A stretch of 64,000 nucleotides of DNA from the NCBI GenBank assembly GCA_045535075.1, contig JAZSKX010000014.1, positions 128,001 through 192,000 of the forward strand, read 5' to 3'. This DNA is from Candidatus Spyradenecus sp. (GTDB lineage: Bacteria > Verrucomicrobiota > Verrucomicrobiia > Opitutales > UBA953). The translations under genes were made by a program, and so were the position numbers. Position 1 is the first letter of the stretch, and every line of letters starts with the position of its first letter. Under the pieces are notes generated by a model. The model worked only from the letters and a program-made list of their open reading frames with translations. It was not told where the DNA came from and did not search any database. Shown here in pieces: positions 1-64,000 of the stretch.

Positions 1-691
1 TAAAAATTTGAACGGAAGCGGAACAATCATGCTCGGTGGGAATACGACGAGTTCTGTTTTGACGATTGAATCGACGGATGACACGACGTTTGCAGGGGAT
101 TTGACGTCGGGAGTGACTAACGGCAGTAAAACGCTTGACCTCGTCAAAACCGGCGCGGGAACGTTGGTTCTCAGCGGGTCGAATGTTCTCAATGCCGTAA
201 CTGTTTCCGAGGGGGCGCTGTCGGTAGAAGGATCTCTATCACCTATAGTGAAACCATATTCGTCAATTGCGGTTGCTTCCGATGCACAACTTACGGTTTC
301 TCAGATGGTAAAGTATGACGAAGCAACGTACTACGGAATCTTTCTTAATACACTCAATCTTGCAACAGACTCGAAGCTTGTTGTTGATTTGGAGGGAGTT
401 CAAGCGGCAGGCGAAACGATCACACTCAATATTGTTTCGGCGACAGCAGCGATTAACTTGGGTGCGAGCGTGGAAGGTGTGGCTCTAGCTACGGCAGATG
501 TTCCCGCGATTGAAGATTTTGTTTCGATTACGGGTAATGCACTCCTCAGCGATTACGTCAAGCAGACGTGGACTCTGAGCGATAACACGCTTTCGTTGAC
601 GCTTGCGATTCCGGAGCCGTCGTTGTTCGGCTTGTTGGCGGGCTTGGGTGCGTTGACCTTGGTCGGCACGCGCCGCCGCAAGAAAGCTTAA
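1..691 (+). CDS. PEP-CTERM surface protein with autotransporter-associated beta-strand repeat, 5' truncated by the window edge
   Basis: Frame is open back to the window start; LVKTGAGTLVLSGSN repeat; C-terminal IPEPS + hydrophobic helix + RRRKKA sorting signal. Confidence 0.9.
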   Translation, partial: KNLNGSGTIMLGGNTTSSVLTIESTDDTTFAGDLTSGVTNGSKTLDLVKTGAGTLVLSGSNVLNAVTVSEGALSVEGSLSPIVKPYSSIAVASDAQLTVSQMVKYDEATYYGIFLNTLNLATDSKLVVDLEGVQAAGETITLNIVSATAAINLGASVEGVALATADVPAIEDFVSITGNALLSDYVKQTWTLSDNTLSLTLAIPEPSLFGLLAGLGALTLVGTRRRKKA

Positions 692-715
692 AGATTAATG
701 CTTAGAGCTTAAAGG
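686..715 (+). repeat. Degenerate 7-bp tandem repeat
   Basis: gcttaaa gattaat gcttaga gcttaaa spanning the PEP-CTERM stop codon. Confidence 0.55.
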
Positions 716-754
716 AACGTTCCCGCGGAGTGAATTCGCGGGAACGTTTTTTTT
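716..754 (+). terminator. Intrinsic terminator built from an inverted pair of the abundant motif
   Basis: AACGTTCCCGCG-gagtgaatt-CGCGGGAACGTT followed by a T run, 25 bp after the stop. Confidence 0.85.
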
Positions 755-784
755 GTGAATTTATAAGAATTGCGGGCAGAATAT

Positions 785-1101
785 TTCTTTTGCCCTTTCA
801 GGGCGTGGGTGATTTTTGGATTTTGTACCCAAGGTGTCGTTCGCGTTGCGAACTTGCCGTTGGGCTGAACTCCGATCGGCTTTCAGCCGAACCTCGGCGC
901 GTTCCCGTGGAATGATTTGCGGGAACGTTTTGTGAATTTTATCCGCGTTTTCGTCGACGAAGTGATTTGAGAATTCGCACGTTCCCGGCAAATTAAATTC
1001 GGCTGAAAGCCGCTTGGAATTTCAGCCCGAGGCAAAATGAGCGCAGCGAATGTCGCCTCGGGTTTTTGTATAAAAATATTCGCCCTGAAAGGGCAAAAGA
1101 A
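785..1101 (+). repeat. REP/REPIN- or MITE-like palindromic element, copy A
   Basis: Perfect 21-bp terminal inverted repeats TTCTTTTGCCCTTTCAGGGCG (785-805) / CGCCCTGAAAGGGCAAAAGAA (1081-1101); internal hairpins at 828-864, 877-889, 1000-1012, 1026-1062. Confidence 0.85.
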
Positions 1102-1117
1102 CGTTCCCGCGAAAATG

Positions 1118-60451: not shown

Positions 60452-60599
60452 TACTCCGATTTTACGACCAAAGCTCGAATAAATCATCTATAATTTCTGC
60501 CGTTCCCGCGATTTTTTATTATTCCGGCAAAGACTTTTTCCGCGTGAAAAAGAAAAACGGGATTCATTTTTATGCGGGAACGTGGTTTAATCTACGCAT

Positions 60600-61580
60600 A
60601 TGGACGACCAAAAAATTATCGAAGCAGGGAAACATGTTCTGAAAGCGGAAGCGGATGCGTTGCGCGTTATGGAAGCCGCGCTCGATGAAAGCTTTGCAAA
60701 AGCCGTTGAAATTCTTTACGCGAGCGATCGCAAGGTCGTTATCTCCGGCGTCGGAAAATCCGGGCTTATCGGACAAAAAATTGTTGCCACGCTTTGTTCC
60801 ACGGGAACGCCCGCGATCTTTTTGCACAGCGCGGATGCCGTTCACGGGGATTTGGGAATTTGCCAGCCGGGCGATCCGGTTGTTCTGATTTCCAAGAGCG
60901 GAACGACGGCGGAAACGGTGCGCCTGTTGCCGAGCCTGAAAAAAATGGGCTCGAAAATTATCGCCATTGTCGCCAATAAAAATTCCCCGCTCGCAGAAAA
61001 AGCGGATGTCGTCCTCGATATCGGTGTGAAATCCGAAGCCGATCCGCTTGGCATTGTTCCGACGACGAGCACGACGCTTACGCTTGCGATGGGCGATGCG
61101 CTTGCTGCCGCGCTGATGCTTAAGCGCAGTTTCGGGGAAAAGGATTTTGCAAAATTCCATCCGGCGGGACAGCTTGGGCGAAACTTGCTTTTGACGGTCA
61201 ACGACGTGATGCGTCCTCGCGGAAAAATCGCCGTTGTCTCCGGAGAAACTTCCGTGCGCGACACCGTGATTGCGATGACGGAGTGCCCGCACGGCGCGGC
61301 TTGTGTCATTGATGCGACGGGAAATCTTCTCGGAATTATTACAGACGGCGATTTGCGCCGTGCGCTTCACAAGCATGAAAATCTCGGCGGAATTACGGCT
61401 CTTGAAATTATGACGAAAAATCCGATTTGCGCCTTTGCGGGAATGAGTCTCGGCGAAGCCGCGCGTGTGATGGAGGATCGTCCGTCTCAGATTTCCGTAC
61501 TTCCCGTTTTGGATGCGCCGGGCGGTGATCTCGTCGGCTTGCTTCGCATTCACGATATTTATCAGGCCGGACTCGTTTGA
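60600..61580 (+). CDS. kdsD: Arabinose-5-phosphate isomerase (KpsF/GutQ)
   Basis: GVGKSG, HGDLG, PTTST, FHPAGQLG, tandem CBS domains. Confidence 0.93.
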   Translation: MDDQKIIEAGKHVLKAEADALRVMEAALDESFAKAVEILYASDRKVVISGVGKSGLIGQKIVATLCSTGTPAIFLHSADAVHGDLGICQPGDPVVLISKSGTTAETVRLLPSLKKMGSKIIAIVANKNSPLAEKADVVLDIGVKSEADPLGIVPTTSTTLTLAMGDALAAALMLKRSFGEKDFAKFHPAGQLGRNLLLTVNDVMRPRGKIAVVSGETSVRDTVIAMTECPHGAACVIDATGNLLGIITDGDLRRALHKHENLGGITALEIMTKNPICAFAGMSLGEAARVMEDRPSQISVLPVLDAPGGDLVGLLRIHDIYQAGLV

Positions 61581-63181
61581 GCGCGCACGATTCCAGATTC
61601 CGCCGCGGGCTTTCCCGTGACGACGCGGGATTGCCGCAGGAAGTCGGCGAGGATTTTGTCCCGCGTCGGCAGAAGCTCGTCGCCGGCTTTGCTGTGTTGA
61701 CTTTGCTTTGGTCGACTTGGGCGCAGACTGCCGCTACGGCGTTTACCGTGCTTGTGGCAACAGGATTGGCGGCGCTGACTCTAGCGTGGCTTTTTTTGCC
61801 TACGGGAGCTTACGATTCTGCGCGATCCGCAAAGCGAAATTTTTTCCGGCTGATGAAATTTCCGCTGTTTTGGATCGGGATTGCGCTTTGGATTTATATT
61901 TGTATCCAGGGTTGCGTTCCCGGGGTAAGTGTCGAATGGCTGGAAAAGTCTTGGCGCATTCATCGCATTGCGGGAACGCCGGAGTGGCTTCCGACCGGCG
62001 TGGATGCCGGATTCGGTTTTGACCCGAAAATGGGAATGAACGCGTGGCGCCAACTTTGTATTTTCGGGGCGCCGTGGATGATTTTGTGCGCGCTTTGGTG
62101 CGGATTGCGTTCCCGCAGAGCATGGAAGTTTTTGCTTTGGACTGTGCTTTTGAATGCGGTTTTACTGGCGTGCTTCGGCTTGTATCGCAGTTGCTTCGGA
62201 ATTCATTCTTATCTCGGAGAAACGAAGTATTATTTCTTTTCTGTTTTTTCATACAAGAACCATGCCGGCGAGTTTTTTGTTCTCGCAATGGCAATTTGCG
62301 CCGGGCTGGGCTTGCGTAGCTGGCGAGCTTCCTCGCTCGCCGGAAAGCATGGCGGCGCGTATCTGATTTTGCTGATTTTCGGATTACTTTTTCTCGGCGC
62401 AACTTTCGCGACGAAATCCGTCGGCGCTGTTTTTCTCGGTGTTCTCTGGTTGCCTTTAATTGTCATTCTGATTTGCGCTTCGGGGCTGATGACGCGTTCG
62501 TCCTGGTTGGCGGCAGGCGTTTTTTTGGCAATGCTTCTTTGTGTCGCGGGAACGTGGTGGGCGACGGCAAAAACCGATGTTTTCTTTTCCCGTGTGGACC
62601 AAAAAGTTGCCGACGGCGAATTACCTGATATTGAGCGCGTGATTCATCCGGAAGATAAAACTGAAGAGCGCAGTGAACTGGCGGAAACGTTTTCGCTCGA
62701 CAAAGGTCCGCGTGCTGACCTTCGGAAGCTTTCCGCCAAAATGTTTCATTATAACACGCATACGGAACTTTTCGGCTGGGGCGCCGGTTCGTATCGCTGG
62801 ATCGCGCCGGCGTTTCAGCTTTCGATGCCGGAGTTTACGAAGATTAATAAGCGAACGGGAAAAAAGTATTTGCCGACGCGAACGTCGTATGCGCATTGCG
62901 ATCCGTGGCACTTTCTTGTCGAATGGGGCGCTGTAGGCGCGGGAATTTTTGCCGCCGGAGTCTTATGGTTCTGGGGATTCGCGCTTCGAAATTTTCGTCG
63001 TTGGCGTGCGTCTTCGGTGGCATTTTTGGCGGGAATTGCAATTTTTTCGCTCCACGCATGCGTTGAGTTTGTTTCTTTTAACCCGGCATTAATGCTCTGC
63101 GTCGCTCTCCTTGCTGCCGCATTTAAAGCGGATCTTTCACGGGAAAAGCTGCTTGCAAAAAAACAAACGCGGACTCTTTAG
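61577..63181 (+). CDS. O-antigen ligase family membrane protein
   Basis: Multi-[20 protein letters not shown]...LVEWG, LHACVEF. Confidence 0.75.
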
Positions 63182-63209
63182 TCTTTAATCTTTCCTCTTT
63201 AATCTTTAA
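63175..63209 (+). repeat. 7-bp tandem repeat (TCTTTAA) x5, degenerate
   Basis: tctttag tctttaa tctttcc tctttaa tctttaa. Confidence 0.7.
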
Positions 63210-63222
63210 ACTCATCAACGCT

Positions 63223-64000
63223 ATGGCAAATATTCCTCCTTTCAAATATCAACACCCGTTCCCGCTCGGTGAAGACAAAACCGAGTATTATCTTCTGACT
63301 AAGGACTATGTTTCCGTCGGCGAATTTGAAGGCGTTCCCGTGCTCAAAGTTGCCAAGGAAGGCTTGACCGCGATGGCGAATGCCGCGTTTCGCGATGTTT
63401 CTTTCATGCTCCGCCGCGCGCACAATGAGCAGGTCGCCAAAATTCTCCGCGACCCGGAAGCGAGCGAAAACGACAAATACGTCGCGCTCACGTTCCTGCG
63501 CAACGCGGAAGTCGCCTGCAAGGGGAAGCTCCCGCTCTGCCAAGACACGGGAACGGCGATTATTCACGGCGAAAAAGGACAGCAGGTTTGGACGGGTTAT
63601 TGCGACGAAGAAGCGCTTTCGCTCGGCGTTTTCAAAACTTACACGGAGGAAAATCTGCGCTACTCGCAAAACGCGCCGCTGAATATGTATGACGAAGTCA
63701 ACACGCGTTGCAATCTTCCCGCGCAAATCGACCTCGAAGCCACCGAAGGCATGGAATACAAATTCCTGTGCGTGACCAAGGGCGGCGGGAGCGCGAACAA
63801 AACCTATCTTTATCAGGAAACGAAAGCACTTCTGAACCCGAAAACGCTTGTTCCGTTCCTCGTCGAAAAAATGAAAACGCTCGGCACCGCAGCTTGCCCG
63901 CCGTATCACGTGGCATTCTGCATCGGCGGCACTTCGGCGGAAAAAAATCTTCTCACGGTCAAACTCGCTTCGACGCACTACTACGACGAACTTCCGACCA
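63223..64000 (+). CDS. fumA: Class I (Fe-S) fumarate hydratase, 3' truncated; absent from the ORF track
   Basis: Translation from 63223: [26 protein letters not shown]...PLCQDTGTA...LRYSQNAPL...KGGGSANKT...ACPPYH. Confidence 0.93.

Follow-up and report, generated by a model that had tools for sequence, protein, structure and literature searches.

An asymmetric eight-base word densely repeated in the genomes of one gut Opitutales genus, possibly of the DNA-uptake type

The 64,000-nucleotide stretch of Candidatus Spyradenecus sp. analysed here (hereafter the window; G000:C1:128001-192000) is strewn on both strands with the heptamer CGGGAAC, most often extended to the octamer CGGGAACG. The genome to which it belongs, G000, comprises 1,949,087 bases in 18 contigs (52% GC, 99.45% complete). 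In our best reading, some active process maintains CGGGAACG in one genus of gut Opitutales, where it recurs once every 220-380 bases. We tentatively read CGGGAACG as a word of the uptake-sequence kind that has been spread by molecular drive, and weigh this reading below against processes of other kinds that could maintain such a word.

An initial annotation of the window had counted about 235 copies of CGGGAAC or its complement GTTCCCG, split about 113 to 122 between the strands, mostly extended beyond seven bases and present in nearly all genes, and our recount agrees closely: the window holds 236 copies (113 on the plus strand, 123 on the minus strand), against a mean of 14.0 (s.d. 3.5, maximum 24) in 100 dinucleotide-preserving shuffles. 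The extension to CGGGAACG is found in 190 of these copies (95 on each strand) and the extension to YRCGGGAACG in 130, and at least one CGGGAAC lies in 50 of the 52 crude gene calls. Altogether 191 copies fall within gene calls and 45 outside them or across gene ends, the longest CGGGAAC-free stretch being 1114 bases (60802-61916). The T-rich 5′ flank described by the same annotation did not generalize, T making up only 0.27-0.29 of bases at positions -4 to -6.

The excess extends to the whole genome. The commonest 6-, 7- and 8-mers of G000 all belong to this word (CGGGAAC 6528 copies, CGGGAACG 5159), where Markov models of orders 0, 1, 2 and 3 expect 69, 183, 268 and 587 copies of the octamer and an order-5 model expects 3611; CGGGAACG occurs at 2.0-3.2 per kb in every contig longer than 15 kb and at 2.65 per kb genome-wide. 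Gene calls for G000 are crude (open reading frames scored by codon usage, yielding 1420 genes over 85% of the genome), so all coding figures are approximate. Genic copies number 4243, against 470 ± 14 (maximum 505) in 20 shuffles of synonymous codons within each gene, which preserve both protein and codon usage, and a shuffle of codon order leaves 161. Intergenic copies number 913, where 17-63 are expected. The initial annotation had reckoned with an enrichment that might be confined to the window or might dissolve under codon-preserving shuffles; it does neither, and CGGGAACG is hyper-abundant beyond composition and coding constraint in the manner of the DNA uptake sequences (DUS) of Neisseria and the uptake signal sequences (USS) of Pasteurellaceae.

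A logo of 6527 genomic CGGGAAC copies carries information from -3 to +8 only (y-Y-R-CGGGAAC-G-c), with A and T runs confined to those copies that form terminator hairpins. The word is not palindromic, its reverse complement being CGTTCCCG, and so differs from the palindromic HIP1 (highly iterated palindrome 1) of cyanobacteria. It is denser between genes (3.22 per kb) than within them (2.55 per kb) and occupies all six reading frames, with 1460, 1149, 713, 382, 273 and 260 copies; the fullest are sense frame 1 (1460 copies, coding A/T-G-T) and antisense frame 2 (1149 copies, V-P-A). The higher intergenic density and the use of every frame together indicate a feature of the DNA itself, located where proteins tolerate it. 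One-off variants of CGGGAACG lie mostly near expectation (0.4-3 times), enrichment being found only at positions 6-8 (CGGGAGCG 6 times, CGGGAACA 10 times, CGGGAACT 6 times), and no transition-specific hole was seen among them. Copy spacing in G000 is Poisson-like, with a coefficient of variation of 1.02-1.09.

The two strands of G000 carry 2527 and 2632 copies of CGGGAACG (plus and minus, respectively). Because the assembly is in 18 contigs, polarity was judged solely by local GC skew, which served to assign the leading strand: the G-rich strand carries 2701 copies and the C-rich strand 2224 (55:45), or 458 and 410 when intergenic copies are taken alone (53:47). This mild bias tracks gene orientation (sense to antisense about 60:40). 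We therefore see neither the replication polarity of Chi sites nor the terminus-directed polarity of FtsK-orienting polar sequences (KOPS) and architecture-imparting sequences, and the replichore bias that the initial annotation had held out as a possible objection did not materialize.

Enrichment of CGGGAACG marks out a single genus. All 19 of its genomes carry the word in excess (552-7777 copies, against 73-175 of a reversed-word control), 15 of them with 5159-7777 copies; the richest, G003, reaches up to 4.5 per kb, or one CGGGAACG per 222 bases and about 3.6% of the genome. Four species are word-poor, namely G001, G002 and G013 (1347-1385 copies) and G014 (552). No enrichment was found in any of 102 genomes from the family's four other genera (25-383 copies, controls 23-449), nor in the 16 genomes that represent the order's other families, and samples of 57-100 kb each from the sister genera G019-G022 held no word near the level of CGGGAACG. 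The comparison with sister genomes proposed by the initial annotation thus finds a trait that is genus-wide yet ends at the genus boundary. When 185,579 species genomes were scanned for the word's hairpin form (described below), repeated matches, among the matches listed, came only from records labelled Opitutales bacterium, Candidatus Spyradosoma sp., Verrucomicrobia bacterium and a few unlikely names, and single matches, again among those listed, were scattered over unrelated taxa as by chance. The word-bearing group is, on these labels and its taxonomy, a gut Opitutales genus, and the labels of records with many motif hairpins agree with the initial annotation's mention of Verrucomicrobiota. 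We found no published description of CGGGAACG or of any uptake-type word in Verrucomicrobiota in a literature coverage that lay outside subscription journals, and matches to the word itself were, among those listed, of primer type only.

Two observations accompany this survey. Four oddly labelled records (L143, L152, L156 and L162; labels include Enterobacteriaceae and Sphaerochaetaceae) have the motif counts of genus genomes and are probably mislabelled metagenome-assembled genomes. The 100 kb sample of sister genus G019 (L113-L117) shows mild enrichment of CGGGTACG and CACGGGTA, at about 0.3 per kb and 6-9 times the Markov-2 expectation, the former differing from CGGGAACG by one base; the same sample contains 18-mers resembling repetitive extragenic palindromic elements.

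Relatedness within the genus was gauged roughly, by how closely each DnaE protein matches that of G000 rather than by a tree; this amino-acid identity is 95% for G002, 94% for G001 and G013, 85% for G004, 70% for G014 and 63-68% for ten others. Since CGGGAACG-rich genomes occur in either branch of the deepest split, abundance of the word is probably ancestral in the genus; it is reduced in G014 and in the trio closest to G000 (G001, G002 and G013). At the DNA level, the DnaE loci of G000 and G001 are about 75% identical. GC content at this locus spans 0.45-0.67 (L062-L077) within what is one GTDB genus, despite 63-95% protein identity, and the word persists throughout that range. Individual positions turn over between deep clades, such that G004 retains 2 of 10 copies in the DnaE gene of G000, and G009 retains 2 of 8.

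Against this turnover, copies are conserved beyond their surroundings. In UvrA (five distant-clade genomes, 20 ordered pairs), motif 8-mers are identical in 230 of 280 cases (82%) against 48% for all 8-mers, and silent third positions are 93.8% identical in motifs (n = 707), compared with 79.5% elsewhere (n = 16829). For DnaE, with 10 genomes and 90 ordered pairs, the corresponding values are 266 of 504 (53%) against 17%, and 84.8% (n = 932) against 61.9% (n = 84934); in both genes the frames were picked by homology and the ordered pairs share common ancestry, and so are not independent. Conservation between genomes that includes silent sites is a property that CGGGAACG shares with HIP1. The pattern nonetheless shows that some force keeps CGGGAACG copies and creates new ones in each lineage.

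A sample of roughly 133 kb from word-poor G001 retains enrichment of the 5′ part CGGGAA and none of the 3′ CG, and GGGAA stands at 4.3 per kb, compared with 1.5 per kb in G019. For G014 we considered a switch of dialect to CCACCAACCC, of which that genome holds 1685 copies (859 plus, 826 minus; extended form CACCACCAACCC), and rejected it: these copies are clustered in arrays that repeat every 14-20 bases and frequently lie where contigs end (for example, L039:143-629, L043:66-161 and 5479-5720), and so constitute a different kind of repeat from CGGGAACG. CCACCAACCC occurs 0-3 times in the other 18 genus genomes and 1-23 times in the 102 sister-genus genomes.

Neighbouring copies in G000 are strongly over-represented in the arrangement GTTCCCG...CGGGAAC when their starts are 15-21 bases apart; the reverse order (CGGGAAC...GTTCCCG) shows no enrichment. 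There are 213 pairs of the form GTTCCCG-N(0-20)-CGGGAAC (64 convergent, 94 tandem and 6 divergent intergenic, with 49 inside genes), and 158 of the 213 lie downstream of at least one gene. The terminator-like pairs typically read AAAAAAGC-GTTCCCG-YG-loop-CR-CGGGAAC-GCTTTTTT. Eight pairs from the window fold at -16 to -28 kcal/mol, with z at or below -3.5 in seven, and one of them (15944-15969) is independently recovered by a consensus terminator scan as a 13-pair stem at 15942-15971. Abutting copies, which make the 14-base palindrome GTTCCCGCGGGAAC, occur 21 times in G000. By their form, about 160 of the inverted pairs are bidirectional intrinsic-terminator hairpins, with putative terminator activity; any kind of inverted pair accounts for 6.5% of CGGGAAC copies.

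The longest gaps and poorest 5-kb windows for CGGGAACG in G000 show atypical GC, and four regions of mobile or island type (two Mu-like elements, an NgoBV-type restriction-modification island and a helicase island; Table 1) carry 0-0.54 copies per kb against 2.65 genome-wide, in line with the depletion in prophages and islands that the initial annotation had proposed to look for. Nineteen viral-contig stretches that hold the motif hairpin have 0.10-0.63 copies per kb, a figure that includes the two copies required by the search pattern, and none of the 19 approaches the host density. No relatives of the Mu-like portal protein were found in viral contigs. The Mu-like prophage on contig C16 encodes, after its portal gene, a 487-aa protein that has a domain of the ADP-ribosyltransferase exoenzyme type, as well as a YadA-head-repeat protein and, at its end, two D12-class adenine methyltransferases. 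Two short contigs, C18 (3741 bases, encoding an AllG-family protein) and C3 (3143 bases), have 0 and 1 copies of CGGGAACG at normal GC; neither is rRNA, which discards that explanation of their poverty, and both may be foreign or mis-binned DNA.

To our knowledge, sequence-specific DNA uptake is known from two proteobacterial families only; in Neisseria, ComP is the DUS receptor. PMC12616744, using protein-DNA co-folding, proposes ComN/PpdA as the receptor for the Pasteurellaceae USS, and bioRxiv 10.1101/2025.10.24.684340 gives 1291-3105 copies of the DUS and USS 10-mers per genome, with inverted pairs serving also as terminators and about half of all copies located there. CGGGAACG resembles these words in being short and non-palindromic, in numbering thousands of copies per ~2 Mb equally on both strands, in favouring the least costly genic frames while being enriched between genes, in supplying the stems of (here putative) terminators through inverted pairs, in its scarcity in prophage-like elements and islands, and in being common to related species but not to the groups next to them. 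Its conservation at silent sites fits an uptake sequence as well. Like the hosts of DUS and USS, G000 encodes a type IV pilus, ComEC and DprA: its pilus-type genes comprise one secretin, two PilB-like and one PilT-like ATPases adjoining a PilC-like gene, and seven prepilin-type proteins, and both ComEC and DprA are intact in all 19 genus genomes.

We infer from this likeness both that the word is read by an uptake route and that transformation occurs in the group. In such a scheme, a surface or periplasmic component of the type IV pilus/secretin route would prefer DNA bearing CGGGAACG, so that word-bearing DNA from relatives would be taken up more often and recombined via the ComEC, DprA and RecA route; over time, biased uptake would drive CGGGAACG, whichever way it points, into every position that tolerates it in the core genome, and the abundant word could later have been co-opted, in inverted pairs, as the stems of about 160 intrinsic terminators. 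A route without ComEA and without a ComEC nuclease domain would imply that the receptor is a new kind of sequence-specific surface or periplasmic DNA-binding protein. It is conceivable, at somewhat less than an even chance, that CGGGAACG is the first uptake-type self-recognition word outside Proteobacteria and the densest known, read by an unconventional route with a new kind of receptor.

A number of findings weigh against uptake-type drive. We know of no transformation in Verrucomicrobiota, and literature searches found no report of it. The core of CGGGAACG (7-8 bases) is shorter than DUS and USS (9-12 bases), and the word is 3-5 times denser. Intergenic inverted pairs hold only 328 of the 6528 CGGGAAC copies (5%), unlike the roughly half stated in the preprint for DUS and USS. 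The phylum differs, and the ComEC of G000 has the channel (Competence) domain only, with no metallo-beta-lactamase domain. ComEA was not found in G000, where matches to the HHH_3 and TIGR00426 models are confined to DnaE and a Tex-like 805-aa frame, and a regular-expression screen found no small protein with a double helix-hairpin-helix; the transformation machinery is in this respect incomplete. Word-poor G001, G002, G013 and G014 retain every competence gene tested, so nothing ties word density to competence. The presence of uptake genes is in any case non-discriminating, since the word-free sister genera are not shown to lack them. Nor does a receptor candidate stand out, the pilin-like proteins matching solved pilins through the N-terminal helix only. 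The initial annotation's suggestion of an uptake or other recognition system therefore stands in part: the anatomy of the word and the secretin, pilus ATPases, prepilins, ComEC and DprA speak for it, whereas ComEA was not recovered and few copies sit in terminators.

The search for a reader among the pilus proteins yielded little. None of the seven prepilin-type proteins has a domain beyond the N-terminal helix. Two of them, of 141 and 238 aa, are conserved across the genus and were considered and rejected as ComP, their sequence matches to solved structures covering the N-terminal helix only and including no ComP. The 238-aa pilin, which we take to be of the HX9DG-like family, shows housekeeping-level conservation; in G014, however, identity of the ortholog is 57%, against 70% for DnaE, a divergence that gives a weak lead only. 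A four-pilin cluster is intact in the word-poor trio and, in a synteny walk across the genus, adjoins RluB only in G000 and that trio. We likewise rejected the loss of genes as an explanation for the scarcity of the word in G001, G002, G013 and G014, in all of which ComEC, DprA, secretins, pilus ATPases and two pilins are intact; no cause of the scarcity was found. As a separate observation, secretins number one in G000 and two in each of G001, G002, G004, G013 and G014, and T2SSE-type ATPases number three and four, respectively, which suggests that a secretion or pilus system has been lost from G000.

After uptake-type drive, we rank second a process like that behind HIP1, in which the word would arise from biased repair or a methylation-linked process, or would be the site of a nucleoid or chromosome-structure protein, with no role in uptake. 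We consider this unlikely, and place it here because the distribution of CGGGAACG is partly closer to that of HIP1, while the word is no palindrome and no cognate methyltransferase was found. As described in PMC5861425 and PMC4390886, HIP1 (GCGATCGC) is 15- to 300-fold over-represented, exceeds one copy per gene in some genomes, is conserved in position both inside open reading frames and between them, and is lost or weakened in some lineages. The density of CGGGAACG, its eight-base length, its mostly genic location in every frame and its silent-site conservation are nearer to this picture than to DUS or USS; its weakening in G014 and the trio parallels the lineage loss described in PMC5861425; and the missing ComEA suits a process other than uptake. 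HIP1, however, is palindromic and accompanied by orphan methyltransferases for its inner sequence, whereas CGGGAACG is asymmetric and its one-off variants are biased to the 3′ end only. No methyltransferase core to the genus was found in a non-exhaustive screen (regular expressions, with Pfam on the matches, rather than full annotation): those of G000 are two Dam-like enzymes at the end of the Mu-like prophage, a C5 enzyme in the NgoBV island and three type I HsdM. An MmeI-family type IIG enzyme (995 aa) was also considered, as its presumed site class, asymmetric words of 6-7 bases ending in AC, would fit CGGGAAC; it was rejected as a genus-wide driver because no more than 9 of 18 relatives carry it and some of the richest genomes (G003, G007 and G016) lack it. 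Its gene (G000:C2:15779-18763) has host-level word density (2.7 per kb), and the G001 copy carries an internal stop. Phosphorothioation, whose motif we take to be GAAC/GTTC, was dismissed as no DndC was found, and Vsr-type repair was dismissed as a source because the one-off variants lack a transition-specific depletion; the Poisson-like spacing of copies likewise speaks against a HIP1-like origin.

Ranked third, and less probable still, is a self-marker of the Chi kind: the word would switch a DNA-degrading helicase-nuclease to recombination, and rescued word-bearing fragments would supply the drive, such that a cell's own DNA, whether incoming or broken, is spared while foreign DNA is degraded, with no need of replication polarity once the density on both strands is saturating. 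Chi words are short, non-palindromic, strongly co-oriented with replication and spaced at one per several kb. CGGGAACG shares their shortness, asymmetry and over-representation, and in 17 of the 19 genus genomes we found a 1093-aa AddA/RecB-like protein that combines a UvrD helicase with a PD-(D/E)XK nuclease. Mobile DNA is word-poor, viral stretches included, and the word-poor Mu-like prophage carries a gene for Gam, a protein that protects DNA ends from helicase-nucleases. Set against this are the lack of polarity, a 28- to 75-fold excess and a density far beyond those of known Chi sites, and the intact helicase-nuclease of G014 and the word-poor trio. No RecC/AddB-like partner that might recognize the word was found among nine large proteins scanned from the annotated large ATPases (RecC family models were not searched), and G000 has a single PDDEXK_1 match. 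A comparison may also be drawn with KOPS and architecture-imparting sequences, which are likewise asymmetric 8-mers, and G000 encodes an FtsK with the gamma domain; KOPS are strongly polarized towards dif, unlike the near-even strand distribution of CGGGAACG. A word with no reader at all, arising as a codon, dipeptide or mutational by-product or as debris of a small mobile element or terminator-hairpin family, is very improbable. Such an origin would suit the uneven use of frames (two of six hold 62% of genic copies), the part of the excess that an order-5 Markov model absorbs (inevitable for a nested word) and the variability of the 3′ end among copies. It is contradicted by the small remnant left by the synonymous shuffle, an intergenic density above the genic one, flanks without information beyond 3 bases (and hence no longer element), the small share of copies in inverted pairs, the conservation of silent sites above background, and the persistence of the word across the range of locus GC when no sister-genus genome is enriched. 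We regard a reader-free by-product as largely excluded, and leave the rest of the probability to mechanisms outside these four.

Were uptake-type drive true, it would be the third independent case of sequence-specific uptake, making genome self-tagging a recurrent solution, and donor DNA carrying CGGGAACG would offer a genetic handle for uncultured gut Verrucomicrobiota that have no tools; the failure to find ComEA suggests that the DNA receptor is a new one. If unrelated to uptake, CGGGAACG is instead the representative of a new class, an asymmetric and unpolarized genome word at HIP1 density. Whatever its reader, the word separates core from foreign DNA, the Mu-like elements and defence islands being deserts, and so aids binning and contamination checks for the genus. 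The genus is also a natural experiment, with 15 genomes rich, 3 weak and 1 nearly without the word, in which a contrast of gene content could reveal the reader gene.

Table 1. Copies, inverted pairs and word-poor regions (positions in the window unless a contig is given)
Feature	Position	Strand	Details
Dispersed CGGGAAC field	156..63554	both (113 +, 123 -)	236 copies
GTTCCCG-N13-CGGGAAC, convergent genes, A-run/T-run flanks	719..745		fold -28.3 kcal/mol, z -7.4
Inverted pair N12, end of first ~170-nt unit copy	901..926		-19.7 kcal/mol, z -3.5
Inverted pair N12, end of second ~170-nt unit copy	1269..1294		-16.4 kcal/mol, z -1.7, weakest of eight
Inverted pair N9, convergent genes, A-run/T-run flanks	13127..13149		-18.3 kcal/mol, z -4.3
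Inverted pair N12, downstream of + strand gene	15944..15969		-25.5 kcal/mol, z -5.4
Inverted pair N10, convergent genes	18023..18046		-25.6 kcal/mol, z -5.4
Abutting inverted copies (GTTCCCGCGGGAAC), inside gene call	23067..23080		sequence pattern
Inverted pair N6, intergenic, then T-run	32063..32082		sequence pattern
Inverted pair N12, convergent genes, A-run/T-run flanks	43512..43537		-27.2 kcal/mol, z -7.9
Second abutting inverted pair, inside gene call	45227..45240		sequence pattern
Inverted pair N10, downstream of + strand gene, T-run	54284..54307		-22.4 kcal/mol, z -5.6
Inverted pair N16, inside gene call	59750..59779		sequence pattern
Mu-like prophage (Gam, MuB-like ATPase, Mu portal, gp27, terminase)	G000:C16:~183000-220300		0.54 copies per kb
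Second Mu-like element			0.29 copies per kb
NgoBV-type restriction-modification island with C5 methyltransferase			0.23 copies per kb
Helicase island, 1608-aa DEAD+UvrD protein			0 copies per kb

Several of the putative terminators adjoin other non-coding or repeated elements. A non-coding unit of ~170 nt is duplicated at window positions 765-931 and 1133-1299 (92-96% identical, 368 bases apart), each copy ending in a motif terminator; it has no Rfam match and may be a duplicated small RNA gene. A 25-nt or so element containing TATATTAATTCAT occurs in seven copies (G000:C5 at 53152, 51179, 63914, 106104, 153757 and 282867; C9:57113), most of those shown lying ~10-15 bases past ...CGTCGC(C/T)(G/A)A and directly before a motif terminator or similar hairpin, and it is probably the common 3′ end of a paralogous gene family. 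The window further contains a 6S RNA (68.4 bits) at 40102-40282 on the minus strand, adjoining tRNA-Arg(CCG) at 39887-39961 on the same strand; the 6S gene has no copy of the word inside it and is flanked by one on either side, at 40066 and 40294.

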